From: an uncultured Candidatus Peribacteria bacterium
Lineage (GTDB): Bacteria; Patescibacteriota; Gracilibacteria; Peribacterales; Peribacteraceae
DNA length: 41,005 nucleotides
Reading direction: 5' to 3'
Assembly: GCA_964478005.1 (NCBI GenBank)
Contig: CAYZGJ010000002.1
Location: forward strand, 1 to 41,005
The translations under genes and the position numbers were made by a program. Of this stretch, positions 889 to 33,935 are shown piece after piece. The notes beneath the pieces are model-generated. The model was not told where the DNA came from, made no database searches, and saw nothing but the letters and a program-made list of their open reading frames with translations. The first letter of the stretch is position 1. The number at the start of each line of letters is the position of its first letter.

Positions 889-923
889 CATTGGACATTT
901 GAAATTTGGCATTTGTCATTTCA
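889..923. repeat. Heptamer tandem array, CATTKGA/CATTTGT family, 5 units
   Basis: cattgga|catttga|aatttgg|catttgt|catttca, read directly. Overlaps the stop of CDS 921..1382. Confidence 0.8.
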
Positions 924-1382
924 TCTCCTATACCCCGCCGCCTCCGCCTCCTCCGCCGTGGCAAAATAGACGCGATTCTGCGGGACGATGTTCTGTCCGC
1001 CGGCGGAATCGACGGGATAGTACTTCGTGCCTTTGGACGAAGCGACGAAGCGCATGCCGGGCGGAGCCATGACCGTGATGCGGTTGGTCAGGATACTGCG
1101 ATCCGCGATGGCAAAGCGCCCTTCGTCGTCGACGGGGATGATCGTCCCCCCGGCGCTCAGGCGCACGACGCCCTCCACGGACCCCACCAGCGCGCCGTTT
1201 GCGATGCCGTCGATGCGCACCACGGGCAGATCCGTCCCTTCATCCGCCACGATCGTGACGGGGGCGGGGCGGTATGCGCGGTACGCCGTCACCGTGGAGC
1301 CGAGCAATCCGCCGAAGAGGACGGACAAGAGGACCGTCAGCAGAGTGGACAGTGCCGTCGGATCCATGGGGGGCAGGCGCAT
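921..1382 (-). CDS. Hypothetical membrane-anchored protein; C-terminal motif resembles sunset/Ada-like metal-binding tails
   Basis: ORF track 153 aa. N-terminal TM helix (LSTLLTVLLSVLFGGLLG). C-terminus KYYPVDSAGGQNIVPQNRVYFATAEEAEAAGYRR. Confidence 0.6.
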   Translation of the reverse strand: MRLPPMDPTALSTLLTVLLSVLFGGLLGSTVTAYRAYRPAPVTIVADEGTDLPVVRIDGIANGALVGSVEGVVRLSAGGTIIPVDDEGRFAIADRSILTNRITVMAPPGMRFVASSKGTKYYPVDSAGGQNIVPQNRVYFATAEEAEAAGYRR

Positions 1383-1384
1383 GG

Positions 1385-1801
1385 TCAGGAGCCGGTCGCG
1401 GTCGAGAGGCCGGTGTCCGCGGGAGCCGGTGCGTCATTGAGCTCCACGGGCACGACGTCGAGGATGCGGTCCTCCGAGGCGCGGTAGAGGATGGCGCGCG
1501 TGGGCGTCACGACCAGGAAGTCGCCGTTCTCGGCCTTGTTGTAGAAGGCATTCTTCTCCCGCAGCACCGCCACATCCACGATGGCGGCCACCGTCGGCTC
1601 GCTGCCATCATCGATGACCATGTGCGTCCGCACCTTCTCCACGATGGTCCGTGCCTGCTCGCGGCTCTCCTCGCCCCCCTGCTGCATCAGCTGCGTGAGA
1701 TCCCGTACCTGCACCTGCGCCTGTCGCCGCTGCACGTCGCTGATGACCACGAGTGCGACCAGGACGACGATGAGGATGGGGAAGAGGATGTGGGGACGCA
1801 T
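1385..1801 (-). CDS. Hypothetical membrane-anchored protein
   Basis: ATG at 1801 within ORF 1385..1864 (MRPHILFPILIVVLVALVVISD...). The longer ORF N-terminus is encoded by the repeat array and is unlikely to be real. Confidence 0.6.
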   Translation of the reverse strand: MRPHILFPILIVVLVALVVISDVQRRQAQVQVRDLTQLMQQGGEESREQARTIVEKVRTHMVIDDGSEPTVAAIVDVAVLREKNAFYNKAENGDFLVVTPTRAILYRASEDRILDVVPVELNDAPAPADTGLSTATGS

Positions 1802-1805
1802 AGAC

Positions 1806-1894
1806 GAATGAATAATGGATAATGAATAATTGATAATGGGAATGAACCGTATCCACTCAATCATTATCCATTATCCATTGTCCATTGTCCATTT
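1806..1894. repeat. Inverted pair of heptamer arrays (AATGRAT / ATTATCC family) forming an intercistronic hairpin
   Basis: Left arm 1806-1840 gaatgaataatggataatgaataattgataatggg. Right arm 1861-1894 tcattatccattatccattgtccattgtccattt. The arms are imperfect reverse complements with a 20-nt loop. Confidence 0.8.
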
Positions 1895-2363
1895 CCAGAA
1901 ACCATCCCTCCCCCACCGCCGCCGTCCGCGCTTCGCCGCGGTTGACTTCCAGTGCGTAGCGGGCGGCACCCAACGAGAGCGTCGTCGGACAGGGATCTGC
2001 GTCGCAGGGTTCCATCGTGGCGCGCGACACGAAGCGCCCCGCCGGGTCGAAGAAGAGGATGTCGAGCGGGATCAGCGTGTTCTTCATCCAGAAGGACCGC
2101 TCCGCGTCATCGGGGAAGACGAAGAGCATGCCGGCGCCCGCGGGCAGAGCGGACCGGAACATCAATCCCGCCTGCCGCTCCCCGGGGTCATCGGCGATCT
2201 CCACCGCAATCGTGACGCGCTCCCCCGCCGGCCCCGTCAGCACGACGACGCCCTCCCGGAGAACGGTCTCCACGGAAGAAAGGCGCAGGACGGAGAGGCC
2301 CAGGAGGACGATCAGGAAGACAAGGAGGACGATGATGGCAAGGTTCTGCGAGGAGCTCGTCAT
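1857..2363 (-). CDS. DUF192 (COG1430) domain protein with N-terminal TM helix
   Basis: ATG 2363 in ORF 1857..2456. GLMFRSALPAGAGMLFVFPDDAERSFWMKNTLIPLDILFFD is the DUF192 core. ATGA overlap with the rpe stop. The last 12 codons (EMDNGQWIMDND) are encoded by the heptamer array. Confidence 0.8.
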   Translation of the reverse strand: MTSSSQNLAIIVLLVFLIVLLGLSVLRLSSVETVLREGVVVLTGPAGERVTIAVEIADDPGERQAGLMFRSALPAGAGMLFVFPDDAERSFWMKNTLIPLDILFFDPAGRFVSRATMEPCDADPCPTTLSLGAARYALEVNRGEARTAAVGEGWFLEMDNGQWIMDND

Positions 2364-2995
2364 GCGGCGCGGAGGGAAGCGATGGCGGCTGCGCGATCCT
2401 CTGCGGCAAAGATGGAACTGCCGGCCACCAGATTGTTCGCTCCTGCTCCGATGCACTCCCGCGCCGTCTCTGCGTTGACCCCGCCGTCGACCTGGATCAT
2501 GAGATCGGGGAAACGCGCGCGCAGAGCCCTCACCGTATCCAGGGCGTCTGCGATGAACTTCTGCCCGCCGAATCCCGGCTGCACGGTCATGACCAGGACC
2601 AGATCGACCTCCGTCACGACGTCCGCAATCGCGTCGGGCGGCGTCCCGGGATTCAACGCGATGCCCGCCGTTGCGCCCCCCTCACGAATGGCTTTCAGCA
2701 GGGCTCTTCTCGAATCCGTTGCCGCAACGGTTTCCGCGTGGAACGTGATGTGCTTCGCGCCGACCGCCAGGAATTCCGCGATGCGATCGGCGGGGTTCGT
2801 GACCATCAGATGGACATCCAGCAGCAGGTCCGTCCGCAGCGTCCGGAGCACGGGAGCGCCGAAGCTGAGATTGGGGACGAAGTGCCCGTCCATGACGTCG
2901 GCCTGCAGCCAGTCGGCGGACGCGACGGAATCGACCTCCTCCTGCAGCCGTCCGAAATCCGCCGAGAGGATGGAAGGGGCGATCAGAATGCTCAT
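2360..2995 (-). CDS. rpe: Ribulose-phosphate 3-epimerase
   Basis: MSILIAPSILSADFGRLQEEV...DVMDGHFVPNLSFG...HLMV...FHAE...MTVQPGFGGQKF are hallmark Rpe motifs. Confidence 0.93.
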   Translation of the reverse strand: MSILIAPSILSADFGRLQEEVDSVASADWLQADVMDGHFVPNLSFGAPVLRTLRTDLLLDVHLMVTNPADRIAEFLAVGAKHITFHAETVAATDSRRALLKAIREGGATAGIALNPGTPPDAIADVVTEVDLVLVMTVQPGFGGQKFIADALDTVRALRARFPDLMIQVDGGVNAETARECIGAGANNLVAGSSIFAAEDRAAAIASLRAA

Positions 2996-3447
2996 GAAGG
3001 AATCGGGGTATCGAGATCGTCCACGCGCGCCTGATGGCGTCCGCCTTCAAACGGCGTTTCCAGGAAGATGTCGGCCATGCGGCAGGCAAGGACCGGGTCG
3101 GTGAAGCGCCCGCCCATCGCGCAGACGTTGGCGTCGTTATGGAAGCGGGCGAAATAGGTGATCTCCTCGCCGGTGCAGAGCGCCGCGCGGATGCCGCGGA
3201 CCTTGTTGGCGGCCATCTGCTCCCCGTTGCCGCTCCCGCCGAAGACGAATCCGGGCATCCTCTGCTCCAGCACGACCGCGCAGGCCTTGCGGACGATCGG
3301 CGGGTAGTCGACGGGCTCCACGTCGAACGTGCCGACGTCGATGACGTCGATCCCGCGCCCCTGCAGGTGCTGCTTCACCGCCTCCTTCAGCGTGAAGCCG
3401 GCATGGTCGGATCCGAGGACGACACGGGTGATCTGCATCGGCCCCAT
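2992..3447 (-). CDS. rpiB: Ribose-5-phosphate isomerase B (RpiB/LacAB family)
   Basis: VVLGSDHAGFTLKEAVKQHL...GGSGNGEQMAANKVRGIRAA...HNDANVCAMGGR. Alternative ATG at 3438. ATGA overlap with rpe. Confidence 0.9.
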   Translation of the reverse strand: MGPMQITRVVLGSDHAGFTLKEAVKQHLQGRGIDVIDVGTFDVEPVDYPPIVRKACAVVLEQRMPGFVFGGSGNGEQMAANKVRGIRAALCTGEEITYFARFHNDANVCAMGGRFTDPVLACRMADIFLETPFEGGRHQARVDDLDTPIPS

Positions 3448-3485
3448 GGTACGCGCATCGCGCTCGCATCGGAAGAGATCGCTGG

Positions 3486-3491
3486 TATGCT
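3486..3491 (+). promoter_or_regulatory. Possible -10 box (TATGCT) placing the TSS at or next to the tpiA ATG (leaderless configuration)
   Basis: tatgct-ggatgc-ATG, with 6 nt between the hexamer and ATG 3498. The -35 region is weak (ctcgca). Confidence 0.25.
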
Positions 3492-3497
3492 GGATGC

Positions 3498-4271
3498 ATG
3501 CCTGACCGCCGCCCCCTCATCGCCGCGAATTGGAAAATGTATGCCCCGCCGGACGGATGGGACGCCGACGATTCGCCGTATCATTCCACCAAAGACGTCG
3601 ACGTCATCGTCTTTCCCACGATGCTCGATCTCGTCGCCTGCATGAGAGAGGAACTGATCACCGGAGCGCAGTGCGGCCGGGCTGAGGAAGCGGGCGCCTT
3701 CACCGGCGATGTCTCCATGCGGATGCTCGCGCACATCGGCTGCAGCCACGTCCTCTGCGGCCACTCCGATCGGAGAGCGTTCCATGGCGAAACCGATGCG
3801 GACATCGCCAAGCAAGTCGTCGCCGCGCTGGAGGCGGAGATGATCCCGATCCTGTGCATCGGCGAAACAGGAGAAGAACGGAAAGCGGGACGATCCGAAG
3901 AAGTCATCAGAAGGCAACTGGAAGCAGTGCTGACGGAAATGCAACATGCACAATGCAACATGCAACATGATGGATTCGTCATTGCATATGAACCTGTCTG
4001 GGCCATCAGCCGCGGCGATCCGTCGACTCCCTCCGCGACGCCCGAAGAAGCGCAGCGCATGCATGCCTTCATCCGCGCAACGCTCACATCTCACCACTCA
4101 CATCTCACATCCGTCCGCCTTCTCTACGGCGGCTCGATGAACGCCGACAACGCCGCCGCCCTGCTCGCACAACCGGACATCGACGGCGGACTCGTCGGTG
4201 GCGCATCCCTCAATCCAAAGGAGTTCCAATCGATTGTGGACGCCGCCGCATCGGCGTACGGTGGGCATTAG
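3498..4271 (+). CDS. tpiA: Triosephosphate isomerase
   Basis: IAANWKM, CGHSDRR, IAYEPVWAI, YGGS and VGGASL motifs. Confidence 0.93.
   Translation: MPDRRPLIAANWKMYAPPDGWDADDSPYHSTKDVDVIVFPTMLDLVACMREELITGAQCGRAEEAGAFTGDVSMRMLAHIGCSHVLCGHSDRRAFHGETDADIAKQVVAALEAEMIPILCIGETGEERKAGRSEEVIRRQLEAVLTEMQHAQCNMQHDGFVIAYEPVWAISRGDPSTPSATPEEAQRMHAFIRATLTSHHSHLTSVRLLYGGSMNADNAAALLAQPDIDGGLVGGASLNPKEFQSIVDAAASAYGGH
3939..3966 (+). repeat. In-frame heptamer array (ATGCAAC x4) inside tpiA
   Basis: atgcaac|atgcaca|atgcaac|atgcaac encodes ...EMQHAQCNMQH... in the variable loop before IAYEPVWAI. Confidence 0.85.
4083..4110 (+). repeat. In-frame heptamer array (CTCACAT x4) inside tpiA
   Basis: ctcacat|ctcacca|ctcacat|ctcacat encodes ...LTSHHSHLTS... 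in the variable segment before YGGS. Confidence 0.85.
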
Positions 4272-4299
4272 TCATTATCAATTATCCATTATCCATTCC
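4272..4299 (+). repeat. Heptamer array (CATTATC/ATTATCC family, 4 units) filling the tpiA-SPFH spacer
   Basis: tcattat|caattat|ccattat|ccattcc, followed by tccc-ATG (4304). Confidence 0.8.
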
Positions 4300-4303
4300 T
4301 CCC

Positions 4304-5059
4304 ATGCCCTTCCTCCCCACCCTCTTCCTCCTCGGCCTCCCCCTCCTCATCCTCATCCTGCTCCTCATCCGCCAGGTGGACCAGTACGAGCGGGGCATCG
4401 TCCTCACCATGGGGAAATTCTCGACCATCTGGCAGCCGGGCTGGCACATCATCATTCCCGTCTTCCAGCGGCTGATCAAAGTAGACGTCCGCGTGAAGGC
4501 CGTCGACGTGCCGGATCAGGAAGCCATCACCAAGGACAACATTCCCGTCCGCATCAACGCCGTCATCTACTACCGCGTGCAGGATGCTGCGAAAGCGGTG
4601 ATCGACGTGGAAGACTTCTTCTTCGCCGTCTCGCAGCTGGCGCAGACGACCATGCGCAATGCGGTGGGCGAAGTGACGCTGGATGAACTGCTCGCGCAGA
4701 AGAAGGACGTCAGCGAGCGCATCAAGCAGGTGGTGGACAGCGTCTCCGACGCGTGGGGCATCGACGTGCACTCGGTGGAGCTCAAGGACATCATCCTGCC
4801 CGAGAGCCTCAAGCGGACGATCGCCAAGGTGGCGGAAGCCGAACGCGAGAAGCGCGCGGTCATCATCAACTCCGAGGGCGAAGTGCTGGCCGCGGAGAAC
4901 ATGGCCAAGGCCGCCCACACCCTGGCCGCCTCCCCCGGCGCGCTGCACCTGCGCACGCTCCAGAGCATCAACGACTTAAGCTCGGATCAATCCAACACGA
5001 CCGTGTGGATGATTCCCGTGGAAGTGCTGAAGGCGCTGGAGGGGCTCGCCAAGAAATAG
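4304..5059 (+). CDS. SPFH/Band-7 (stomatin/prohibitin-like) membrane protein
   Basis: N-terminal TM helix, then QYERGIVLTMGKF...ITKDNIPVRINAVIYYRV...RNAVGEVTLDELL...WGIDVHSVELKDIILPESL. Typical SPFH domain. Confidence 0.9.
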   Translation: MPFLPTLFLLGLPLLILILLLIRQVDQYERGIVLTMGKFSTIWQPGWHIIIPVFQRLIKVDVRVKAVDVPDQEAITKDNIPVRINAVIYYRVQDAAKAVIDVEDFFFAVSQLAQTTMRNAVGEVTLDELLAQKKDVSERIKQVVDSVSDAWGIDVHSVELKDIILPESLKRTIAKVAEAEREKRAVIINSEGEVLAAENMAKAAHTLAASPGALHLRTLQSINDLSSDQSNTTVWMIPVEVLKALEGLAKK

Positions 5060-5077
5060 TCCGCACATTTCCCGAGC

Positions 5078-5108: not shown

Positions 5109-5125
5109 TAGAATTGTCTTCCCTT

Positions 5126-16464: not shown

Positions 16465-16653
16465 AAGCCCACCTTCCCTTCAAGGAGTCTCGCATTCCCG
16501 GGGCCCGCGAGACCCGTGGATTGCTCGACGATTGTTTGATTGCACTGATGCGATTGGGATGATGGGAAAGCTGGGAGATAATGAGTAACACTCGCCAACT
16601 TTCAAATGACCAATACGCATCACAGAATGAGTGCCGGCGGCGCGCTTTCTTTG

Positions 16654-16684
16654 GTCCTTTCTTTGCGCGCTCCAAAGAAAGGAC
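16654..16684. other. 12-bp hairpin with a competing upstream half-site in a non-coding region
   Basis: gtcctttctttg-cgcgctc-caaagaaaggac. A second copy gcgcgctttctttgg (16640-16654) could pair alternatively. GCGCGC palindromes flank it. Confidence 0.4.
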
Positions 16685-16781
16685 AAACCATCCAACAGAA
16701 GGAATCCTCTTAACGCTTGCTGAACTGCGCCCTTCGACCCCCCTCGCTTCGCCCAGGTCGCGCAGGGTCTGCGAGGGAATA

Positions 16782-18136: not shown

Positions 18137-18175
18137 TGAGGAGAAGAGGAGAGAGACGAGAGGAGGAGAGGAGGA

Positions 18176-19254: not shown

Positions 19255-19313
19255 AGGGGAAGGGTGGGAGGGGACGGAAAACGGGCGCCGGTGCGCCCGG
19301 AGGAAAAGAACGA

Positions 19314-19931: not shown

Positions 19932-19934
19932 CGA

Positions 19935-19962
19935 GGGAGTAGGGAGGAGGGAGTAGGTGGTG
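19935..19962. repeat. Heptamer array GGGAGTA/GGGAGGA (4 units) immediately upstream of the rpsD start
   Basis: gggagta|gggagga|gggagta|ggtggtg. On the mRNA strand this is a C/U-rich tract. Confidence 0.7.
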
Positions 19963-20026: not shown

Positions 20027-20054
20027 GTGCTTGGTCATTGGTGCTTGGTCATTA
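20027..20054. repeat. 14-nt (2x7) direct repeat GTGCTTGGTCATTG x2, containing TTGGTCA
   Basis: gtgcttggtcattg|gtgcttggtcatta. The second copy overlaps the rpsK stop. Confidence 0.75.
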
Positions 20055-20447: not shown

Positions 20448-20478
20448 GGAGAGGAGGAGAGGAGGAGAGGAGGAGAGG
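20448..20478. repeat. 8-nt tandem array GGAGAGGA x~4 abutting the rpsK ATG
   Basis: ggagagga|ggagagga|ggagagga|ggagagg. Reads CCUCUCCU on the mRNA strand. Confidence 0.8.
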
Positions 20479-20504
20479 TACGAGAAGAGGAGAAGAGGGA
20501 ACGA

Positions 20505-20885: not shown

Positions 20886-20903
20886 AGACGAGGTTGGAGG
20901 GAG

Positions 20904-20924
20904 TAGGTTGTAGGTTGTAGGTTG
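20904..20924. repeat. Heptamer array TAGGTTG x3 (5' arm of a long stem)
   Basis: taggttg|taggttg|taggttg. Positions 20904-20920 are the perfect reverse complement of 21003-21019. Confidence 0.85.
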
Positions 20925-20926
20925 GA

Positions 20927-20970
20927 GGGAGTGGGGAGTGGGGAGTGGGGAGTGGGGAGTGGGGAGTGGG
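20927..20970 (+). repeat. Heptamer array GTGGGGA x~6 (G-quadruplex-capable on the + strand, UCCCCAC on the mRNA)
   Basis: ggga gtgggga gtgggga gtgggga gtgggga gtgggga gtggg. Six or more G4 runs with 3-nt loops. Confidence 0.9.
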
Positions 20971-21002
20971 CTGTAGGGAGGAGCGCGAGGGCGGAAGCAG
21001 TT

Positions 21003-21020
21003 CTACAACCTACAACCTAT
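21003..21020. repeat. Heptamer array CTACAAC x2.5 (3' arm of the long stem)
   Basis: ctacaac|ctacaac|ctat. Pairs with 20904-20920. Confidence 0.85.
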
Positions 21021-21460: not shown

Positions 21461-21529
21461 AGTCGCAAAAAAAGGGAAATGGACCGCAAAAGCCGCCGCA
21501 TCCTACCGAGCGATCGTATCGACAGCAAG

Positions 21530-21559
21530 CCCATTCTTCGGAAATCCCGCAAGAATGGG
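21530..21559. other. 9-bp hairpin in the AT-rich map-infA spacer
   Basis: cccattctt-(12 nt)-aagaatggg. A possible weak minus-strand promoter TTGCTG-17-TAGGAT lies at 21528-21500. Confidence 0.35.
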
Positions 21560-21599
21560 AAAAATCCATTGCATAATTATAAAAATGTTGTGAAAGTCC

Positions 21600-22346: not shown

Positions 22347-22352
22347 GAAAGC

Positions 22353-22442
22353 AATGGATAATGGACAATTGATAATGGACAATGATCTTCTTCATTCTCT
22401 TTCTACAAGTCATTATCCATTATTCATTATCAATTATCCATT
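22353..22442. repeat. Inverted pair of heptamer arrays (AATGGAT / ATTATCC family) forming the adk-map intercistronic hairpin
   Basis: Left arm 22353-22385 aatggataatggacaattgataatggacaatga. Right arm 22410-22442 tcattatccattattcattatcaattatccatt. About 28 of 33 positions are complementary. Confidence 0.85.
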
Positions 22443-23109: not shown

Positions 23110-23391
23110 CTAACCCGCTTGTTTTTGTTGCCATGGAGGCCTATCCATCAGTGTATGCTCCCCATCTGCACTTACGATAAAAATGGTGCAACACATCCCG
23201 ATACCATCCGCATCGTGCGTAGAAACATCCGCCTTCTGATTTTTCCCCCTCAATATTCCACGTATTCGTTCCGCCAAATTCCGAAGCATTGCTGACATCT
23301 TCGCAGCAACCATCTGCTCTCCTTCCGATAGCAAATCAAATTCCAAAGTAATTGCGGATAGATCCGGCCCTTTTTTCAGCCAGCTTGTCAT
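23110..23391 (-). CDS. Hypothetical small protein (second gene of a low-GC cassette)
   Basis: ORF track 93 aa. ATGA overlap with the upstream orphan. No family recognised. Local GC about 45-50% by hand count, against about 63% in the flanks. Confidence 0.5.
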   Translation of the reverse strand: MTSWLKKGPDLSAITLEFDLLSEGEQMVAAKMSAMLRNLAERIRGILRGKNQKADVSTHDADGIGMCCTIFIVSADGEHTLMDRPPWQQKQAG

Positions 23392-23750
23392 GTTCCAGAA
23401 CCAGAATCTGCCGATTCAACCATCTCACCCGGCGTCACTTCCCCCTTGCCATTTTCAGGAATGCGCCCGCCTAACAGATCCATTCGCACAGGGCAGCCGC
23501 CATGTTGCTGATGATGCACTTTCCCCTGAAACCCACTCGGCCTCGCCACGGTAGCAGGCTGACCGTTACGCCCGACCAGATCGACAATCCCTTTCCAAAA
23601 ACGAACTGCCCAATAGCGTGTTCCGTTCGTACCGTTTGCTTGTTGCTCCGGATCATGTGTGAACAGCTCCACGAGACACCCCCCCTCGCTGCGCAAACCG
23701 CAGGGGCCGCAATAGTCGTCTCCACCCTTGGTAATCTGCAATTCACTCAT
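23388..23750 (-). CDS. Hypothetical small Cys-containing protein (first gene of a low-GC cassette)
   Basis: ATG 23750 in ORF 23388..23789 (MSELQITKGGDDYCGPCGLRSEGGCLVELFTHD...). No family recognised. Confidence 0.5.
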   Translation of the reverse strand: MSELQITKGGDDYCGPCGLRSEGGCLVELFTHDPEQQANGTNGTRYWAVRFWKGIVDLVGRNGQPATVARPSGFQGKVHHQQHGGCPVRMDLLGGRIPENGKGEVTPGEMVESADSGSGT

Positions 23751-23788
23751 AGTGCTCAAAAGAAAATCCGTGCAATGCACCCTCTGCA

Positions 23789-25066
23789 TTACACAAGCTT
23801 GTCATAGTCATGCGCGAGCATCTGCGCGTTCACCTGGCGAATCAACTCCATGACGACGCCGACGACGATGATGAGGCCGGAGCCGGAGATGAGCAGGTCG
23901 TTGGCGTTGAGGGTGGAGTACTTCGTGAAGATCAGCGGGATGATGGCCACGAGGCCGAGGAAGGAGCCGCCCCACAGGTTGAGCCGGCTGCTGGTGCGCT
24001 CCAGCATGGAGGCCGTCTGTTGGCCGGGACGCAGCCCGGGCACGAAGCCGCCGCGCTTCTGGATGGTCTCCGCGATCTCCTTGGGCTTGAAGGTGACCGA
24101 CACGTAGAAGTACGTGAAGGCCAGGACCAGCAGGAAGTAGACGATGATGTAGGCCCAGCCGGGATTCTGCGCGTTGAAGTAGGTATTGATGACGGAGACG
24201 AGCCCCTGGAAGCGGGGAGCGGTCTGGAGGAACTGCGCGACGATGGCCGGCATGGTGATGAGGGAGACGGCGAAGATGATCGGGATCATGCCCGCCTGGT
24301 TGAGGCGGATGGGAATGCCGCCCTGCACCCCGCGTCCGGCCCCCTGATTGGCGTAGGTGATGGGGATGAGGCGGTGCGCGTCGGTGAAGAGGACGACGGC
24401 GACCAGCGTGGCGAGCGCGACGAGCGCGAAGAGGACGAAGGCGCCCTGCTGGCTCTGGCCCGTGAGGATCATGGCGCTGACCTGCGCGGGGATGTTGGCG
24501 ACGATGCCGGTGAAGATGAGCAGCGAGATGCCGTTGCCGATCCCCTTCTCCGTGATCAGCTCGCCCAGCCACATCAGGAAGACGGAGCCTGCCGTCACGA
24601 AGAGCATGGGCAGGAGCACGCCGGGGAAGGACGTGTCCACCAGGCTGACGCCGCCGCGCGAGAGCAGGATGAGGAATCCGTAGCTCTGCACGAAGGCCAG
24701 CGGCAGCGAGAGCCAGCGCGTGTAGCGGTTGATCTGCTGCTGCCCCTGCTGCCCCTCCTTGCTGAGCGCCTCCAGTTTGGGGAAGATGACGGTGCACAGC
24801 TGCATGATGATCGACGCGTTGATGTAGGGCGAGAGGCCCAGCATCACGATGGAGAAGTTATCGACGGCGCCGCCGGTGAGCGCGGCGAAGACCCCCAGCA
24901 GCCCGCCCGATGCGCGGCTGTCGAGGAACTGGGAGAGGGCGAACGGATCGGTGCCCGGCACGGGCAGGTGCGCGACGACGCGGTAGAGAAGGAGCAATCC
25001 GATCGTCAGGACGATGCGGCGACGCAGGTCCCGGGTGCGCCAGATCTGTCGGAAGTAGGAGAACAT
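23789..25066 (-). CDS. secY: Preprotein translocase subunit SecY
   Basis: 425 aa, 10 TM pattern. LLLYRVVAHLPVPG, LGLSPYINASIIMQL, GISLLIFTGIV, RGGFVPGLRPGQQT. Confidence 0.95.
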   Translation of the reverse strand: MFSYFRQIWRTRDLRRRIVLTIGLLLLYRVVAHLPVPGTDPFALSQFLDSRASGGLLGVFAALTGGAVDNFSIVMLGLSPYINASIIMQLCTVIFPKLEALSKEGQQGQQQINRYTRWLSLPLAFVQSYGFLILLSRGGVSLVDTSFPGVLLPMLFVTAGSVFLMWLGELITEKGIGNGISLLIFTGIVANIPAQVSAMILTGQSQQGAFVLFALVALATLVAVVLFTDAHRLIPITYANQGAGRGVQGGIPIRLNQAGMIPIIFAVSLITMPAIVAQFLQTAPRFQGLVSVINTYFNAQNPGWAYIIVYFLLVLAFTYFYVSVTFKPKEIAETIQKRGGFVPGLRPGQQTASMLERTSSRLNLWGGSFLGLVAIIPLIFTKYSTLNANDLLISGSGLIIVVGVVMELIRQVNAQMLAHDYDKLV

Positions 25067-25070: not shown

Positions 25071-25105
25071 ATGGCTAGTGGCTAGTAGCGAGTGGCTGTT
25101 GGCAA
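25071..25105. repeat. Heptamer array GTGGCTA family (5 units) upstream of the secY start
   Basis: atggcta|gtggcta|gtagcga|gtggctg|ttggcaa. Confidence 0.75.
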
Positions 25106-25636: not shown

Positions 25637-26167
25637 TCACAAGGGATTTTCTCCCCCCATCGCGGCTACTCTCTTCCCGAACTCCGCCGCAGCATCCGGT
25701 CCGTTGCCCGTCACGAGCAGCCCGTCCGTCACGACCGATTGTTCCACGAATTCCGCACCGGATCGCTCGATTTGCCGGATCTGCGTTCCCTGCCCGTCGT
25801 CCCAGACGGTCGCCCGCTTCCCTTGCAGCACCCCGGCGGCTGCCAAAATCGTGGGCGCAATGCAGATGGCGCCGAAGGGCCGCCCCGAGGCCGCCGCCGC
25901 GCGGGCGATCCGCAGGGCATCCGCATCGTCCACCAACGCGTGCGCTCCCGGCCCGCCGATGAACGCGATCCGGTCGTAATCATCGACGCGGACATCCCGC
26001 AGCGCCACCGTCGCTTCTTCCGAACCGCCATACTTCCCCGTGCACGTTCCCGCCTGGGTACTCGCCAATGCGATGGCGAAGCCGGCATCCATCAAACCCT
26101 TCCGTGTTCCATCCAATTCTCTGTCCTGATACCCTTCCTGCGCGATGATGAGAAGTGCGGTACGCAT
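25637..26167 (-). CDS. DJ-1/PfpI family protein
   Basis: MRTALLIIAQEGYQDRELDG...YDRIAFIGGPG...GRPFGAICIAPTILAAAGVLQGKRAT. Nucleophile-elbow Cys within AICIAP. Confidence 0.85.
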   Translation of the reverse strand: MRTALLIIAQEGYQDRELDGTRKGLMDAGFAIALASTQAGTCTGKYGGSEEATVALRDVRVDDYDRIAFIGGPGAHALVDDADALRIARAAAASGRPFGAICIAPTILAAAGVLQGKRATVWDDGQGTQIRQIERSGAEFVEQSVVTDGLLVTGNGPDAAAEFGKRVAAMGGENPL

Positions 26168-26178: not shown

Positions 26179-26213
26179 AAATGCAAAATGAGAAATGAGA
26201 AATGAGAAATGAC
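26179..26213. repeat. Heptamer array AAATGAG x5 (UCAUUUC on the mRNA) just upstream of the DJ-1 start
   Basis: aaatgca|aaatgag|aaatgag|aaatgag|aaatgac. Confidence 0.85.
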
Positions 26214-26230
26214 GGACGACTGTCAAAGGG

Positions 26231-26287
26231 CAAATGTCAAATGTCAAAGAGCCAACAACATCAGCAAGGTTTGACATTTGTCATTGG
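26231..26287. repeat. Inverted heptamer arrays CAAATGT / ACATTTG forming a hairpin after the rpsE stop
   Basis: caaatgtcaaatgtcaaag ...(20-nt loop)... tttgacatttgtcattgg. 16 of 18 positions pair. Confidence 0.8.
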
Positions 26288-26304
26288 AAATTTGTCATTC
26301 GTCC

Positions 26305-26937: not shown

Positions 26938-26942
26938 GGGAG

Positions 26943-26977
26943 GGAAATGAGAAATGCGAAATGGAAAATGAAAAATG
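26943..26977. repeat. Heptamer array RAAATGN x5 (same family as 26179-26213) just upstream of the rpsE start
   Basis: gaaatga|gaaatgc|gaaatgg|aaaatga|aaaatga. Confidence 0.85.
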
Positions 26978-26981
26978 AAAG

Positions 26982-28298: not shown

Positions 28299-28360
28299 GA
28301 CGGGAAGAGGAGAGGAGGAGAAGAGCGAGAGGAGGAGAGGAAAAACGGATGGGGGGGGTA

Positions 28361-29221: not shown

Positions 29222-29223
29222 GA

Positions 29224-29760
29224 TTATCCACCTTGGGAACGATGTGCGGAAGGCATGGCTTTGGCGTCGGAAGGCTTGTCGGCGGCGGCCCCCTCTCCTC
29301 CCCCCTCCGTCTTGGAGCCGCGCTTCCAGAAGGGCTGTTTGGTCGGGACGACTGCGTTCTTCTTGCCCTCGCTCTTGGCGGGTGTTTCACCGGCTGCGGT
29401 CGCAGTCGTCGTTGTCTTCTTTGGCGTCTTGGCCTTCTTCGTCACCGCCGCGCCCTTGATCTCCTCGCCGCTCTTCTTCGCAATGCGGATCTTGCGGCCC
29501 TTGGCATCGGTCCGGAACCCGATGCGCGTGGGCTTCTTCGTCTTCGGGTCGATCACCATGACGTTGGAGGCATGCAGGCTGGCTTCGTAGCTGATGCGCT
29601 GTCCTGCCTGCTGGGGCGTCTTCTTGATGTGGCGGATACGCATGTTGGCCCCCTCCACGATGACGCGGTTCTTGGCGGGGAAGACTCGCAGGACGGTGCC
29701 CTGCTTCCCCTTGTCCTTGCCGCTGATGATGACGACGGTGTCGCCGGTGCGGATCTTCAT
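29224..29760 (-). CDS. rplX: 50S ribosomal protein L24 with ~75-aa Lys/Thr/Ala-rich C-terminal extension
   Basis: ATG 29760 in ORF 29224..30144. [44 protein letters not shown] overlap with rplN. Confidence 0.93.
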
Positions 29761-30125
29761 AGGACGTCGGGGGCTTGGGAGATAATTTTCTGGTAGCCGC
29801 GGGCGCGCAGTTCGCGGGCGACGGGGCCGAAGACGCGCGTGCCCTTGGGCATGCCGTCCTTCTGGATGATGACGCAGGCGTTGTCGTCGAAGCGGATCCC
29901 CGATCCGTCCTTGCGGCGGGTCATCGCGCGGCTGCGCACGATCACGGCGCGCTCCACCGACTTCTTCTTCACGGTGCCGCGGGGCGCGGCTTCCTTCACC
30001 GAGACGATGACGACGTCCCCAATGCGGGCGTAGCGGCGACGGGTGCCCCCCAGAACGCGGATGCACATCGCCTGCTTGGCGCCGGTGTTGTCGGCTACGG
30101 TGAGGTAGGTCTGCTGCTGGATCAT
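29757..30125 (-). CDS. rplN: 50S ribosomal protein L14
   Basis: [27 protein letters not shown]...[11 protein letters not shown]. Confidence 0.95.
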
Positions 30126-30403
30126 GCGGATGCGGGGGTATCATCTATCATCTCACTCACGCGGGGGACGCGCTTGACCACCTCCGTGACGCGGAAGTGC
30201 TTGCGCTTGCTGAGCGGACGACACTCTTCGATGCGCACTTCATCCCCTACCATCAGGTCCTCCACCCCCTTGCAGTCTGCGAGGAACTTCTTGCTCTTGC
30301 GGAAGCTCTTCTTGTAGAGCTTGTGCATGACCGCGCGGTGCACCGTGACGGTGACGGTGTCCTGCGAGGCTGCCGACGTGATGGTGCCGAGCTTCGTGAG
30401 CAT
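30122..30403 (-). CDS. rpsQ: 30S ribosomal protein S17
   Basis: [29 protein letters not shown]...[20 protein letters not shown]. Confidence 0.93.
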
Positions 30404-30427
30404 GAGGCGGAAGAAAAGGGAATGCCG

Positions 30428-30697
30428 CTAGGCCGTACGGCGTGCGGGGGCGGGTACTGTAGTGGGAGATGCGGATGTTTTCAACCCGGACTGCGATCCG
30501 GCCTCCAGCTGCGTCAGCACCGTGCACATGCGCGCCAGGTCACGCTTCGCGCGCCGGTAGCGGGCGGTATCTTTCAGGCTGCGCATGGAGATGCCCAAGC
30601 GATCTTTCGCCAGTTCCAGGCGCCGGCGCTCGATCTCCTTGCGGAGTTCGGGAATCTGCATCTTGCGGAGCTCGGTGGCGGAAGCGTGGAGAGCCAT
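30428..30697 (-). CDS. rpmC: 50S ribosomal protein L29 with C-terminal extension
   Basis: ATG 30697 inside the long shadow-extended ORF 30428..31450. MALHASATELRKMQIPELRKEIERRRLELAKDRLGISMRSLKDTARYRRAKRDLARMCTVL. Confidence 0.88.
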   Translation of the reverse strand: MALHASATELRKMQIPELRKEIERRRLELAKDRLGISMRSLKDTARYRRAKRDLARMCTVLTQLEAGSQSGLKTSASPTTVPAPARRTA

Positions 30698-30699
30698 GA

Positions 30700-31125
30700 T
30701 CAGGAAGCGAGGGAGAGGGAAGTAATGACTTTCGTCTTCAACGGCAGCTTGTGTCCTGCCAGGCGCAACGCCTCGCGGGCGGCGGCTTCCGGCAGCCCGT
30801 CCATCTCGAAGAGAACGGTGCCGGCGTTGATGGTCTGGCCGTAGTACTCCAGCGACCCCTTGCCGGCGCCCATCGGCACCTCCGCGGCTTTCTTCGAGAC
30901 GGGCGTGTGGGGGAAGACGCGAATCCAGATCTTGCCGCCGCGCTGGACGGAGTGGGTCATGGCGCGGCGGGCCGCCTCGATCTGGCGGGCGGTCACCTCG
31001 CCGCTCTCCGTGACCTTCAGCCCGATGGAGCCGAACGCCAGCTGCGTGCCGCGCGTCGCCTTGCCACGCAACGCGCCGCGGTTGCGATGGACTTTCCGGT
31101 GCTTGAGCTTGGCAGGTTCTAACAT
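30700..31125 (-). CDS. rplP: 50S ribosomal protein L16
   Basis: MLEPAKLKHRKVHRNRGALRGKATRGTQLAFGSIGLK...RQIEAARRAMT...KIWIRVFPH. Confidence 0.95.
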   Translation of the reverse strand: MLEPAKLKHRKVHRNRGALRGKATRGTQLAFGSIGLKVTESGEVTARQIEAARRAMTHSVQRGGKIWIRVFPHTPVSKKAAEVPMGAGKGSLEYYGQTINAGTVLFEMDGLPEAAAREALRLAGHKLPLKTKVITSLSLAS

Positions 31126-31173
31126 GGGAGAGAGGAATCAGAGCAGGTCTTCGACCCGCGGGAATGGAAGCAA

Positions 31174-31845
31174 TCAGGAAGCAGTCGGGGTGAGAGCGGA
31201 GGACTGCATCTGCTGGACGTTCTTGAACACCATGCCCTTGTAGACCCACACCTGGATGCCGATGGTGCCGAACTTCGTGACGGCGTGGCGGCGGGCGAAC
31301 TGGATGTTCGCTCGGAGGGTCTGCAGGGGGATGTTGCCTTCCTTGAAGAGGTCCGTGCGGGCAATCTCTGCGCCGTTGAGGCGGCCGCCGATCGTGATCT
31401 TTACGCCCTGGGCGCCGGCTTGGACGGCTTTCTCCATCGCCATCTTGCACGCGCGCCGGTAGGGCATGCGCCGCTCGATCTGCCCCTGGATGGTCTCGGC
31501 GATGACGTGCGCGTCCGCGTCGGGATTGCGCAGCTCCTGGATATCCACTTCAAAGGACCCGCCGAACGCGCGCTCCAATCCGGCACGCAGGTCATCGATG
31601 GCTGCGCCCTGCTTGCCGATGATGACGCCGGGCTTGGACGAGACGATGGTGACGTGCGTCTTCTTCCCCCGCTCGATGAGGATTTCGCTGATGCCGGCAT
31701 CCTTGAGCTTCTGCAGGAGGTAGCGGCGGATGCGCTGATCCTGCACGAACAGGTCGCGGTACTTGCGCCCGCGCGCGAACCACGTGGAGTTCCAGGAATG
31801 CGTGATTCCGATGCGCAGGCCGTTGGCGTTCACTTTCTGACCCAT
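31174..31845 (-). CDS. rpsC: 30S ribosomal protein S3
   Basis: ATG 31845 in ORF 31174..32019. MGQKVNANGLRIGITHSWNSTWFA...KPGVIIGKQGAAIDDL...GRLNGAEIAR. Confidence 0.95.
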   Translation of the reverse strand: MGQKVNANGLRIGITHSWNSTWFARGRKYRDLFVQDQRIRRYLLQKLKDAGISEILIERGKKTHVTIVSSKPGVIIGKQGAAIDDLRAGLERAFGGSFEVDIQELRNPDADAHVIAETIQGQIERRMPYRRACKMAMEKAVQAGAQGVKITIGGRLNGAEIARTDLFKEGNIPLQTLRANIQFARRHAVTKFGTIGIQVWVYKGMVFKNVQQMQSSALTPTAS

Positions 31846-31849
31846 GAGC

Positions 31850-32353
31850 TTAGGAGGGAGTGGAAGCAGACGAAGAAGAGGAAGACGGCTTCGCCTTCGG
31901 TGCGGTCTTTTGTACAGCATTCTTCTTCGCTTGGGAAGGCGACGCGGTCTTCTTTTTCGCGGCGCCCGGGGCGGACGGAGTGCGGGCGGCAGCCTTCCGT
32001 GGCGGAGCGGGCGGCGCATCCCCGTTGTCGGCGATCCCCAGCGTCAGGGAGATGTGGCTGAGGAACTTGGTCATGGGACGCATGCGGCCGCGCGCCATCG
32101 GAACGCCGCGGCGCAGTCCCGCCCCCTGGTTGACGACGATGGACTTCACGACCAGGCGCGACGGATCCTGGCGGTCGTTGTGTTCGGCGTTGGCCACCGC
32201 AGACCGCAGCAGCTGCTCCACCATGCGCGCGCCCTTCTTGTGGGTGGAGCGCAGCGCCTCCAGCGCGCCGGGCACGGGCATGCCCCGGACCATCGTGGCG
32301 ATGACGTTGGCCTTCTTGGGAGCGATGCGGGCGGAACGGAGATGCGCTTTCAT
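31850..32353 (-). CDS. rplV: 50S ribosomal protein L22 with Ala/Pro/Lys-rich C-terminal extension
   Basis: MKAHLRSARIAPKKANVIATMVRGMPVPGALEAL...AVANAEHN...VNQGAGLRRGVPMARGRM. Confidence 0.93.
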   Translation of the reverse strand: MKAHLRSARIAPKKANVIATMVRGMPVPGALEALRSTHKKGARMVEQLLRSAVANAEHNDRQDPSRLVVKSIVVNQGAGLRRGVPMARGRMRPMTKFLSHISLTLGIADNGDAPPAPPRKAAARTPSAPGAAKKKTASPSQAKKNAVQKTAPKAKPSSSSSSASTPS

Positions 32354-32371
32354 GGGGGAGGTGGAGAGGGA

Positions 32372-32674
32372 TTACTTGGAAGCTTGTGCGGCGCCTTTGG
32401 CCTGGGACTCGGCCATCTTGCCGCCGTGCCCCTTGAACTTGGTGGTCCAGGAGAACTCGCCCAGCTTGTGGCCGACCATCTGCTCGGTGACGTAGACGGG
32501 AAGGAACTCCTTGCCATTGTGGACGGCGAAGGTGAAGCCGACGAACTCCGGCGGGATGTCGGAGTCGCGCGCCCAGGTCTTGATGATCTTCTTCTCGCCG
32601 CCGTCGACCATGCGCATCACCTTCCGAAGGAGCTTCGGATCGACGTAGGGGCCTTTCTTGAGGGAGCGTGGCAT
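32372..32674 (-). CDS. rpsS: 30S ribosomal protein S19
   Basis: [19 protein letters not shown]...[44 protein letters not shown]. Confidence 0.95.
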
Positions 32675-32752
32675 GGGAGGGGTGGGTGGAAAGCGGGAGG
32701 CGGGTGAGAGGTCGGTAGAGACGTTCCGACGGAATGTCTTTACTACGGTGGA

Positions 32753-33595
32753 CTATCTCTTCTTCTTGATACGGCGGCGGATGATGAGGTCGGAGCTGCG
32801 CTTCTTGCGCTTGCGGGTCTTCACGCCGAAGGCCTTCTTGCCCCAGGGCGTCTTGGGAGCCTTCAATCCGATGGACGAGTGGCCTTCCCCTCCTCCGTGC
32901 GGGTGGTCCACGGCGTTCATGGCGATGCCCAGCACCTGCGGGCGCCGGCCCATCCATCGCACGCGCCCCGCCTTGCCGATCGTGATCAGGTTGTGCTCGG
33001 GATTGCTGACCGTGCCGATGGTGGCTGCGCACTCCTTGCGGATCTTGCGCATCTCGCTGGAGGGCAACTGGATGATGGCGAAGGCGCCGTCGATGCCCAC
33101 CAGCGTGGCGGCGGTACCCGCGCTGCGGACGATCTTGCCGCCCTGGCCGGGATTCATCTCGATGTTGAATACCTTGTATCCCACGGGGATGTACTGGAGC
33201 TGCATGCGGTTGCCCGTCTTCACCTTGGTGCGCTCGCCGGCCACCACCGTATCACCGATGTGCAGATTCTGCGGAGCCAGAACATAGCGCTTTTCGCCGT
33301 CACTGTAGTGCAGCAGCGCGATGCGCGCGGAGCGGTTGGGGTCGTACTCGAGGGCGGCCACCGTGGCGGGGATGTTCTTCTTGTCGATCTGCTTAAAGTC
33401 GACATCGCGCTGCAGACGCTTGTGGCCGCCGCCGCGATGGCGCACGGAGATGCGACCGTTGCTCGCGCGGCCGGAGATGCGCTGCTTCCCCTTCACCAGC
33501 CGCTTTTCGGGCTTCTTCTTGCTGAGGTCCGAGAAGTCCGCGACCGACATCTGGCGGCGGGCGGAGGTCGTTGGTTTCATCTTCTTGATCGGCAT
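32753..33595 (-). CDS. rplB: 50S ribosomal protein L2
   Basis: ATG 33595 in ORF 32753..34099. MPIKKMKPTTSARRQMS...GGGHKRLQR.VDFK...NAVDHPHGGGEG. Confidence 0.95.
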   Translation of the reverse strand: MPIKKMKPTTSARRQMSVADFSDLSKKKPEKRLVKGKQRISGRASNGRISVRHRGGGHKRLQRDVDFKQIDKKNIPATVAALEYDPNRSARIALLHYSDGEKRYVLAPQNLHIGDTVVAGERTKVKTGNRMQLQYIPVGYKVFNIEMNPGQGGKIVRSAGTAATLVGIDGAFAIIQLPSSEMRKIRKECAATIGTVSNPEHNLITIGKAGRVRWMGRRPQVLGIAMNAVDHPHGGGEGHSSIGLKAPKTPWGKKAFGVKTRKRKKRSSDLIIRRRIKKKR

Positions 33596-33597
33596 GG

Positions 33598-33900
33598 TCA
33601 GGCGGCGGTACGGAACTGGGCGAGGTCGATCCCCTTGCTCTTGGGGCGCAGCGTCACGAGCATCTTCTTGGAACGGTGACGCTTGGTGAAGACACGGTTG
33701 GCGCCCACGGAACGGGTCTTGGGGCGCACGCGCATCACGCGGACGCTCTCCACCTCGACATCGAAGAAGCGCTTGAGGGCCTGGCGGACGTCGATCTTCG
33801 TGGCGGCGGCATCCACCGTGAGCGTGTAGACGCGCCGCTCTTTGAGCTGTTCGCTCTTCTCGGTGACCGGGGAGCCTTTGATGACGCGGGAGAGATCCAT
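33598..33900 (-). CDS. rplW: 50S ribosomal protein L23
   Basis: VIKGSPVTEKSEQLKERRVYTLTVDAAATKIDVRQALKRFFDVEVESVRVM. Confidence 0.93.
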   Translation of the reverse strand: MDLSRVIKGSPVTEKSEQLKERRVYTLTVDAAATKIDVRQALKRFFDVEVESVRVMRVRPKTRSVGANRVFTKRHRSKKMLVTLRPKSKGIDLAQFRTAA

Positions 33901-33907
33901 GGGATGA

Positions 33908-33935
33908 GGACGAGGGACTAAGGACTAAGGACGAA
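33908..33935. repeat. Heptamer array GGACTAA family x4 (UUAGUCC on the mRNA) upstream of the rplW start
   Basis: ggacgag|ggactaa|ggactaa|ggacgaa. Confidence 0.85.

Follow-up and report, generated by a model that had tools for sequence, protein, structure and literature searches.

Tandem arrays of seven-nucleotide (7-nt) words have been known in bacteria since 1990, and their origin and function have remained unexplained. In that year, Mazel et al. reportedly described three families of STRRs (repetitive sequences that are short and tandemly repeated) in heterocystous cyanobacteria: STRR1, CCCCA(A/G)T; STRR2, TT(G/T)GTCA; and STRR3, CAACAGT. The subject here is a set of heptanucleotide arrays, mostly intergenic, in a 41,005-nt stretch of Candidatus Peribacteria contig CAYZGJ010000002.1 (the window, to which all coordinates refer). 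It is proposed that they are STRR-type microsatellites, made by replication slippage and filtered in their orientation by the constraints on translational leaders, a reading towards which the evidence tips, if modestly.

Cyanobacterial STRRs are 7-bp units that form hairpins between hupS and hupL; their function is unexplained, and transcript stability or translational coupling has been suggested (PMC2670836). TAACTGA repeats occur in marine Beggiatoaceae, some Cyanobacteria and Bacteroidetes, with S1, the cold-shock protein Csp and CsrA suggested as binders (MacGregor 2015, PMC4679880). G-rich intergenic heptamers include GGGAATC in Xanthomonas and GGGGA(C/T)T in Nostoc (Rehm et al. 2015, PMC4692102). 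As cited in the latter two papers, Mrazek (2007) found heptamers to be the most abundant long simple repeats in most genomes, mostly intergenic, and proposed slippage matched to the polymerase footprint as the cause (PMC4679880, PMC4692102).

An earlier, sequence-only reading of the window had taken the host to be a reduced, high-GC genome, one from which it knew of no such arrays. The guess at the host was right: the closest SecY relatives (71-76% identity) are Candidatus Peribacteria/Peregrinibacteria metagenome-assembled genomes of the Candidate Phyla Radiation (CPR), the GC content of the genome is 64%, and the genomes of Peribacteria relatives measure ~1.2 Mb (PMC4736985). No literature report of heptamer arrays in CPR or Patescibacteria was found, and in the paper on the Peribacteria genome the only repeats mentioned are short ones at the replication origin (PMC4736985). 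The phenomenon is nevertheless less isolated than was thought, because TAACTGA and GGGAATC repeats and a general excess of heptamers are known outside cyanobacteria.

Census and distribution of the period-7 arrays

Arrays were called with Tandem Repeats Finder (TRF), and those of period 7 with at least three copies were counted. The window holds 18, whereas 100 order-3 Markov simulations of it average 0.18 and never exceed 2; TRF also recovers every locus that the sequence-only reading had listed, to within a few bases. Among the other periods that are not multiples of 3, none approaches this count in the window. Period 9 accounts for eight arrays, ascribed to coding periodicity, and periods 5 and 8 for three polypyrimidine arrays in the leaders of S11, S8 and L17. 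The latter, of (TCCTCTCC)n type with period 8/5, form a second tandem class that is likewise G-free.

Spacers and coding sequence were distinguished on a gene map built from GC3-supported open reading frames (ORFs) and family matches. By this map, 15 of the 18 arrays are intergenic, in 12% of the annotated span (binomial p = 1e-11), so the intergenic enrichment to be checked is present. Two of the other three lie within tpiA, and one is the 3' tail of a DUF192-like ORF. As two TpiA loops are encoded by heptamer arrays, period-7 DNA repeats are translated; tpiA spans 3498-4271, and the array-coded loop peptides are MQHAQCNMQHD and SHHSHLTS. The arrays had been described as filling the spaces between genes. 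Of the 33 window spacers that are 20 nt or longer, 10 contain arrays, which account for 41-85% of these ten and do not as a rule amount to the whole spacer. With arrays masked, the lag-7 match of these spacers is 0.299, which equals background and carries no period-7 signal; the idea that all spacers are decayed heptamer arrays is thus not supported.

Other sequencing runs gave two independent Logan assemblies (L081 and L082) that agree with the window at 99.97-99.98% identity and 0 gaps, over aligned lengths of 10 kb and 3.4 kb that cover eight and three arrays, respectively. Because L081 spans eight arrays gap-free, they are not assembly artefacts, which removes a concern raised at the outset. 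Both contigs stop at window position 20941, within the perfect (GGGGAGT)x6 array, where a k=31 assembler is expected to break; perfect arrays split short-read contigs. When the window was searched with Rfam covariance models, tRNA-Thr alone attained its gathering score, and the arrays matched no RNA family.

Beyond the window, the survey took in 81 secY-flanking loci that total 1.34 Mb and come, with few exceptions, from CPR genomes. These hold 130 period-7 arrays against 9.4 expected, with a secondary peak at period 8 (43 against 6.2); a metagenome scan yielded one locus. The distribution is patchy and the words are specific to each genome. A Yanofskybacteria locus (L044) carries 19 arrays in 21 kb, a Falkowbacteria locus (L042) 10 in 9.8 kb and another Peregrinibacteria locus (L012) 9 in 10 kb; Peribacteria loci of more distant relatives (L001, L004, L007, L008, L010 and L011) have no period-7 arrays, nor does the orthologous 50 kb of E. 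coli K-12. Over all loci, array density per kb is 1.05 in co-directional spacers, 0.47 in divergent spacers, 0.26 in convergent spacers and 0.027 in coding sequence. Per kb, co-directional spacers carry 2.8 times as many arrays as the other spacers (p = 1e-5) and ~39 times as many as coding sequence, and all non-coding spacers taken together have 31 times the coding rate (p = 5e-86).

Position, orientation and turnover

Nine window arrays are start-proximal and end 2-18 nt before a start codon, eight of them at 2-7 nt. The genes behind them are ORF 1385-1801 and those for the HflK-like protein, S4, S13, map, SecY, PfpI, S5 and L23. On the sense strand all nine contain less G than C (p = 0.004), and five contain no G. 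Stop-proximal arrays follow the stops of ORF 921-1382, adk, S5, S11 and L36, with one more at the 3' end of the DUF192-like ORF; their words are complementary to the start-proximal ones, contain purines and are mostly of AATG type. The sequence-only reading had held word orientation to be fixed relative to the downstream gene, and CATTATC in the sense direction is indeed found before the gene at 4304, on the + strand, and before those at 1801 and 22346, on the - strand. The genes at 4304 and 1801 are separated by only 2.5 kb and encoded on opposite strands, so orientation depends on the gene rather than on the replichore.

A Shine-Dalgarno (SD)-like tetramer (GGAG, GAGG or AGGA at -20 to -3) precedes only one of 50 window starts. 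CTCC, CCTC or TCCT is found in 26 of the 50 leaders, such CCUCC-like strings having the same sense as the canonical anti-SD. G occupies 16.7% of positions -30 to -1 against 31.9% of the whole window, and C makes up 68% of position -1 and 56% of position -2, so that a YCCC-AUG motif emerges over the leaders of the 50 starts (e.g. 4298-4303, 26938-26944 and 32675-32700). Peribacteria relatives (L083, L086, L007, L009 and L011) show the same G-poor, SD-less leader pattern. Because the lineage has essentially no SD sites, the arrays are de facto initiation regions, and their occurrence at the ribosome-binding position of essential genes means that they must be compatible with efficient initiation. 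We infer that they promote it. Gene callers that depend on SD sites will misplace start codons in such genomes.

Across all loci, start-proximal arrays have less G than C in 36 of 53 cases (36 vs 17, p = 0.011; mean G 0.10, C 0.17) and are G-poorer than array-free control leaders (0.10 vs 0.155, p = 1e-4). Avoidance of ATG was considered as the cause of orientation and rejected, there being six ATG-only and ten CAT-only start-proximal arrays over all loci (p = 0.45). Most CPR loci surveyed are SD-poor regardless of array density, and the proposal that density tracks SD loss between genomes also failed (Spearman rho 0.11, p = 0.35).

A sister species is represented by one genome (L083, L084 and L085; adk 88% identical) and by a further locus of the same lineage (L089; TpiA 78% identical), and turnover was compared at five junctions and two tpiA sites. 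The first tpiA site reads AATGCAACATGCAC x2 in the window and, over the same codons, a perfect (AATGCAA)x4.4 in the sister; the second reads CTCACAT x4.1 in the window and a perfect (CCAAATC)x4.3 in the sister, the words agreeing at 5/7 positions. Both TpiA loops are shorter in other Peribacteria TpiA and in triosephosphate isomerases of the PDB, and their length is hypervariable across Peribacteria. The spacer between tpiA and the band7 gene measures 82 nt in the sister, with (GTATTGG)x4.6 followed by (ATACTCC)x6.3 abutting the ATG, and 32 nt in the window, with (CATTATC)x3.6. AATGGAT-type units form the DUF192 3' end in both, and their start-proximal partner in that spacer is of CATTATC type in the window and (TAATCCC)x6 in the sister. 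In the S13 leader the sister has CCTACAA x2.4, the window an expanded CCTACAA array and L086 a TAACTAC-type 14-mer; in the SecY leader the AGC-heptamers of the window have relatives at the corresponding position of L086 (AGCTCAT AGCTTTT).

Sister arrays are often perfect and stand at the same junctions as those of the window, with words that are related but different; the four sister start-proximal arrays that were read are all G-free. The notion that arrays are ephemeral, suggested by L083 (2-3 in 19.6 kb), was abandoned, as L089 has 7 in 12.8 kb at orthologous sites. Replacement of words in place, often perfect again, is what concerted evolution by slippage predicts. At the level of sequence, arrays are shown to outlast speciation at fixed junctions, with words that apparently drift and re-homogenise as those of microsatellites do.

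The words fall into families. CATT-N3 words are found at 10 loci of the window, and C-rich families (CCCCACT, CCTACAA, CCCTACT, GCCACTA and GTCCTTA) at others. Three consecutive CATT-N3 units with at most one mismatch have 29 matches against 0.04 expected; beyond the window, exact arrays of this kind occur only in its own strain, in one Peribacteria locus (L005) and once in L062. L044 has a core of its own, ACCT/AGGT, in 7 of 18 arrays (p = 0.02). At six spacers of a single Patescibacteria locus (L061, 2247-8131) stands a ~40-nt unit built on CGAATCTA octamers (CGAATCTACGAATGACATTCGAATCTACGAATCTACGAAT), which resembles a dispersed composite element more closely than a set of independent arrays; its CGAA core is also present in arrays of L059 and L074.

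Where both orientations share a spacer, a long hairpin would form. The sequence-only reading had noted several inverted array pairs that make hairpins; four pairs in the window do fold, at -35.7 to -42.7 kcal/mol (z -2.7 to -5.9), and single arrays are unstructured (z >= -1.2). Pairs over all loci number 23, of which 20 lie outside the window; in most co-directional pairs no more than ~11 nt separate the 5' arm from the stop and no more than ~9 nt the 3' arm from the start, and all four pairs of L044 run exactly from stop to start. Hairpin status is reversed between window and sister at 3/3 orthologous spacers compared, with respective z values of -4.9 and 0.2 between DUF192 and the next gene, -5.9 and -0.3 between adk and map, and -1.2 and -4.2 between tpiA and band7. 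In a G-U pair test, sense RNA was the more stable in 14/20 pairs, which is not significant (p = 0.2) and so gives no sign of RNA-level selection on the hairpins. Because they are not conserved in the sister species, the hairpins appear to be tolerated rather than required and are probably incidental.

Proposed slippage and competing explanations

Under the microsatellite reading, out-of-register re-pairing during replication, with a strong preference for 7 nt, would both create arrays and homogenise their units. The arrays are seen to persist only where constraint is weak, in transcribed intercistronic spacers, the 3' tails of genes and protein surface loops such as those of TpiA. An SD-less lineage needing G-poor, C/U-rich, unstructured leaders would then filter word orientation; the G-poor pattern beside starts is observed, and the demand for such leaders is the presumed reason that only G-poor words persist there. 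Start-proximal arrays would be passive initiation regions for nine genes or more, among them those for S4, S5, S13, L23, SecY and map. As in slippage repeats generally, one unit length is in excess over composition-matched controls, with intergenic enrichment, and both copy number and word change between relatives at the same locus.

Several observations weigh against slippage and leader constraint as a full account. Slippage itself was not observed, and the three assemblies of the same strain show no copy-number variation (0 gaps). A purely neutral process would not be expected to yield the 2.8-fold preference for co-directional spacers. Proximity to codons also exceeds that of random placement in the same spacers, with 51% of arrays (against 34%) at 12 nt or less from a start and 40% (against 23%) at 6 nt or less from a stop. 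All stop-proximal members of the (C/A)ATT family are oriented as AATG, for which avoidance of G near starts offers no explanation. The chief observation that a purely neutral model leaves unexplained is a pattern of core plus spacer: a phased (C/A)ATT-N3 core is common to eleven arrays with 51 units in total, TT being invariant (51/51) and positions 5-7 nearly random (0.2-0.5 bits). Deviations within arrays number 10, 5, 0, 0, 12, 10 and 16 by column (chi-square p = 5e-5; p = 0.004 for internal units only), in units that are not independent, as 14-nt duplications are evident. Of the 18 arrays, 12 contain the AATG/CATT core, where the null maximum is ~4.8 (p < 0.002). A 4-nt core should not be left intact by uniform neutral decay, which hints that the motif may be recognised. 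Exact STRR words are also shared by the window more often than expected (2 vs ~0.08, p ~0.003, for the STRR words attributed above to Mazel et al.).

It is possible, though not probable, that the start-proximal arrays are instead selected cis-acting RNA elements that replace the SD sequence and set translation within operons, their periodic CAUU-N3 or CCCCAYU sites being read by S1, by a cold-shock protein with a footprint of ~7 nt, by a HutP/TRAP-like ring or by the 30S subunit itself. Consistent with this, the arrays cover the ribosome-binding zone, place a final CATT core at -7 to -12 in six leaders, keep a phased core as spacer positions vary, are enriched in co-directional spacers and remain G-free at sister junctions despite changed words; the same idea has been put forward for TAACTGA repeats (PMC4679880). 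However, at least eight unrelated words coexist in one genome and others stand at the same genes in the sister, a diversity that is hard to reconcile with a sequence-specific factor, and no candidate factor was identified. Furthermore, the 23 of 33 spacers that are array-free serve equally essential genes, the same families occur in coding loops and beside stops, and array density is uncorrelated with SD use across loci. Slightly more doubtful is the wider proposal that phased (C/A)AUU-N3 and CCCCAYU arrays are a general alternative to the SD sequence, read by a conserved component, the candidates being the 30S subunit or S1, a protein of cold-shock type whose footprint is 7 nt, and a ring oligomer. 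If true, it would hold in SD-abandoning lineages, CPR, cyanobacteria, Beggiatoaceae and Bacteroidetes, and would explain both the 7-nt period and the recurrence of CCCCART and TTKGTCA words in Peribacteria and Nostocales.

The inverted pairs are unlikely to be functional hairpins, whether these would juxtapose stop and start for coupling or re-initiation or act as ~30-bp RNase III or mRNA-stabilising stems. The stability of the four in the window, the placing of most arms near stop and start and the suggestion of stability or coupling in the literature (PMC2670836) fit such a role, but hairpin status flips between orthologues, sense RNA is not significantly stabler, most arrays are unpaired and no array matches the terminator-like pattern. 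The window contains 15 terminator-like sites against 14 expected, none at arrays, and promoter-like sites are likewise not enriched (5 vs 2.3 +/- 1.4), so arrays as promoters or terminators were rejected. Slightly less likely again is a role at the DNA level, as sites for nucleoid or regulatory proteins (cf. TTTTGAT heptads, ctxAB promoter), as GATAAT promoter or melting elements, or as GGGGAGT G-quadruplexes (G4). AT-rich CATTATC/GATAATG words are conspicuous in a 64% GC genome, the adk-map array has two weak promoter-like matches, the hairpins are equally stable on both strands and (GGGGAGT)x6 resembles the quadruplex-forming GGGGA(C/T)T of Nostoc (PMC4692102). Against this role, arrays are infrequent in divergent spacers, the home of promoters, although their convergent density is lower still; only 1/18 is G4-capable; and word orientation is strictly tied to gene direction, which points to the transcript. 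Very improbable is an origin as remnants or cargo of a small mobile element, resembling a miniature inverted-repeat transposable element or a repetitive extragenic palindrome (REP), inserted and then locally amplified. Words do recur (CATTATC at three window loci, AACCTGT at three L044 loci, the CGAATCTA-containing 40-nt unit at six L061 loci), and AATGCAA is present in the tpiA of the window and in both tpiA and the adk-map spacer of the sister. Yet the two CATTATC hairpins are alike in words only, with unrelated loops and flanks; no terminal inverted repeats or target-site duplications were seen, the window has no transposase or REP-associated tyrosine transposase (RAYT), and orthologous arrays change word in situ.

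No new mechanism is yet demanded by the data, and slippage with filtering in leaders is preferred. The earlier wording of a window-wide 'system' suggests more coordination of function than is demonstrated.

Gene neighbourhood and known heptamer systems

The window carries rpe, rpiB, tpiA, a band-7/HflK-like gene, dprA, an RTX-like gene and tRNA-Thr, together with a - strand block of ribosomal-protein genes from L3 through L17, L13 and S9, with secY, adk, map, infA, L36 and rpoA. A lysyl/aspartyl-type tRNA synthetase and a glycosyltransferase are also encoded. Querying for exact copies of the S13 protein gave no record. L30 is absent, and a DJ-1/PfpI-family gene takes its slot (E. coli order) between S5 and L15 in the spc operon. 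The positions of the arrays and of this gene are collected in Table 1.

Table 1. Tandem arrays and associated features of the window, with sense-strand words and position relative to genes.
Feature	Position	Strand	Words	Context
Stop-proximal array	887-921	-	AAATGAC AAATGCC AAATTTC AAATGTC; CATTKGN on +	14-nt super-period; begins within TGA stop of - strand ORF 921-1382
Start-proximal array	1807-1839	-	CATTATC AATTATT CATTATC CATTATT; G-free on sense strand	Ends 5 nt upstream of ATG at 1801 (ORF 1385-1801); 3' arm of hairpin with 1862-1897 (-37.7 kcal/mol, z -4.9)
AATGGAC/AATGGAT array	1862-1897	-	AATGGAC/AATGGAT	5' arm of hairpin with 1807-1839; codes final 12 residues (EMDNGQWIMDND) of DUF192-like ORF 1857-2456
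tpiA coding array 1	3937-3969	+	AATGCAA CATGCAC AATGCAA CATGCAA	Variable TpiA loop
tpiA coding array 2	4083-4111	+	CTCACAT x4.1	Second TpiA loop
Start-proximal array	4273-4297	+	CATTATC x3.6	From just past tpiA stop to 6 nt before ATG 4304 of band-7/HflK-like gene; unstructured, z -1.2
L17 leader array	18138-18175	-	Period-8/5 polypyrimidine, TTCTCCTC-type sense	Directly upstream of start
S4 leader array	19934-19957	-	CCCTACT CCCTCCT CCCTACT; no sense G	2 nt before ATG
Stop-proximal array	20027-20053	-	AATGACCAAGCACC x2 (TTGGTCA on +)	Overlaps S11 stop codon
S11 leader array	20448-20498	-	(TCCTCTCC)x6, period 8	Most of 57-nt S13-S11 spacer; reaches S11 ATG
Compound S13 leader	20891-21019	-	TAGGTTG, CCCCACT and CAACCTA arrays	-42.7 kcal/mol, z -5.4; outer arrays pair mutually; TRF calls at 20891-20980 and 21003-21019
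S13 leader, outer array	21003-21019	-	TAGGTTG x2.4	~30 nt past L36 stop
S13 leader, loop array	20927-20970	-	Perfect (CCCCACT)x6	Template-strand GGGGAGT would be G4-capable
S13 leader, start-side outer array	20891-20928	-	CAACCTA x3	5 nt before ATG
map leader array	22352-22384	-	CATTGTC CATTATC AATTGTC CATTATC	5 nt before GTG start; 3' arm of adk-map hairpin
AATGGAT-type array	22411-22442	-	AATGGAT-type	Starts 2 nt past adk stop; 5' arm of adk-map hairpin (-37.1 kcal/mol, z -5.9)
SecY leader array	25072-25097	-	AGCCACT CGCTACT AGCCACT AGCCA	5 nt before ATG
DJ-1/PfpI gene	25637-26167	-		L081 4819-5349; arrangement kept in sister species (L084 6600-7130)
PfpI leader array	26186-26212	-	Perfect (CATTTCT)x3.9	Unstructured
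Inverted pair S5-PfpI	26221-26303	-	GACGAATGACAAAT... (26270-26303) with TTTGACA x4 (26221-26248)	GACGAATGACAAAT array starts 1 nt past S5 stop; pair folds at -35.7 kcal/mol, z -2.7
S5 leader array	26945-26980	-	CATTTTT CATTTTC CATTTCG CATTTCT CATTT	36/44 nt of spacer; folds at merely -0.8 kcal/mol
S8 leader array	28304-28341	-	Period-8 polypyrimidine	
L23 leader array	33907-33932	-	GTCCTTA GTCCTTA GTCCCTC GTCCT	6 nt before ATG

Several further sites in and around the operon are of interest in their own right. The array-free map-infA spacer (21461-21599, - strand) is conserved in sequence in three species (L083 11418-11575; L086 ~3860-3945) and holds a promoter-like pair, TTGCTG-N17-TAGGAT, after which come a conserved GC-rich segment and a T-run; probably it serves infA as promoter and leader. 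In the S4-rpoA gap (19282-19299, - strand), a 7-bp all-G/C hairpin, CGGGCGC ACCG GCGCCCG, precedes TTTTCC and is the sole convincing terminator- or attenuator-like site of the operon. Downstream of S9 (16560-16781, - strand), a degenerate CATT-type periodicity (CATTCTG TGATGCG TATTGGT CATTTGA ...) lies below the TRF threshold and may be a decayed array. The secY-adk junction is a variable insertion site: it holds two overlapping hypothetical ORFs of 93 and 133 aa in the window (23110-23789, - strand), a gap of 4 nt in L086 and an unrelated opposite-strand ORF in L083 and L084. Upstream of L3, the region 35450-37900 has a lower GC content (0.575) and long ORFs without a Pfam match (e.g. 36152-37372); no S10 gene adjoining L3 was seen in the window.

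Unit length, dispersed families, intercistronic hairpins and apparently shared words together support the analogy with STRRs that was drawn from the sequence at first sight. With the same attributed STRR words, the STRR2-type TTGGTCA and TTTGTCA noted then are exact matches, and CCCCACT is one base off the CCCCAGT of STRR1; exact rotations of CCCCAAT/CCCCAGT occur in the sister species (L083 and L089) and in L003, and CAACAGT was not seen. In both settings 7-nt units stand in tandem in few copies, several word families are spread over many intergenic sites per genome, and inverted copies make intercistronic hairpins, as between hupS and hupL (PMC2670836). Membership in the strict sense belongs to heterocystous cyanobacteria, with their large genomes, whereas the host here is a groundwater-type Peribacteria member of the CPR with ~1.2 Mb and 64% GC. 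The dominant family also differs, being (C/A)ATT-N3, as does the location in ribosomal-protein operons and tpiA, and rules of position and orientation relative to start and stop codons are demonstrated here.

TAACTGA repeats resemble the present arrays in placing 2-6 forward heptamers a few nt before starts, inside ribosomal-protein operons and including a site upstream of S4, in spacers where SD sequences are rare, with few copies inside ORFs (PMC4679880). The nine start-proximal arrays of the window are likewise forward arrays near starts, in SD-less spacers. They differ in that one word dominates there, related heptamers being rare, whereas many words are found here and TAACTGA itself has 0 matches in the window; one indirect repeat was reported there, and inverted pairs are common here. 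The G-rich repeats of Xanthomonas and Nostoc are similarly intergenic, include some inverted pairs and vary in length and sequence at the same junctions between close relatives. Their counterparts are (GGGGAGT)x6 in the S13 leader and the (GGGATTA)x6 of the sister, but the single G4-capable array of the window has its G-rich strand on the template and not in the mRNA. The survey of Mrazek (2007), as far as later papers describe it, covered units of 5-11 nt, precedes CPR genomes and gives no rules of orientation or position.

REP elements and bacterial interspersed mosaic elements of enterobacteria and pseudomonads are also genome-specific intergenic hairpins in operon transcripts, just past stops. 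They are, however, single imperfect palindromes spread by RAYT, whereas the arrays consist of tandem 7-nt units with unrelated loops and flanks, and neither RAYT nor another transposase is encoded in the window. The RNA sites of HutP (UAG-N4 x3, period 7) and TRAP ((G/U)AG-N2-3 x11) share with (C/A)AUU-N3 a short core that recurs with a fixed period between variable spacers, but the likeness is confined to the pattern. Those sites regulate a single operon leader, and no HutP- or TRAP-like protein was found here, no search aimed at one having been made. Relative to all of these, the Peribacteria arrays stand in a new context, that of reduced CPR genomes with scarce spare DNA, highly expressed operons and the initiation regions of essential genes. 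Their positional rules and in-place turnover of words make an old question tractable: as thousands of CPR genomes are public and arrays are patchy among them, comparative genomics can address their 7-nt period, whether they are neutral or functional, and the recurrence of identical words in distant phyla.

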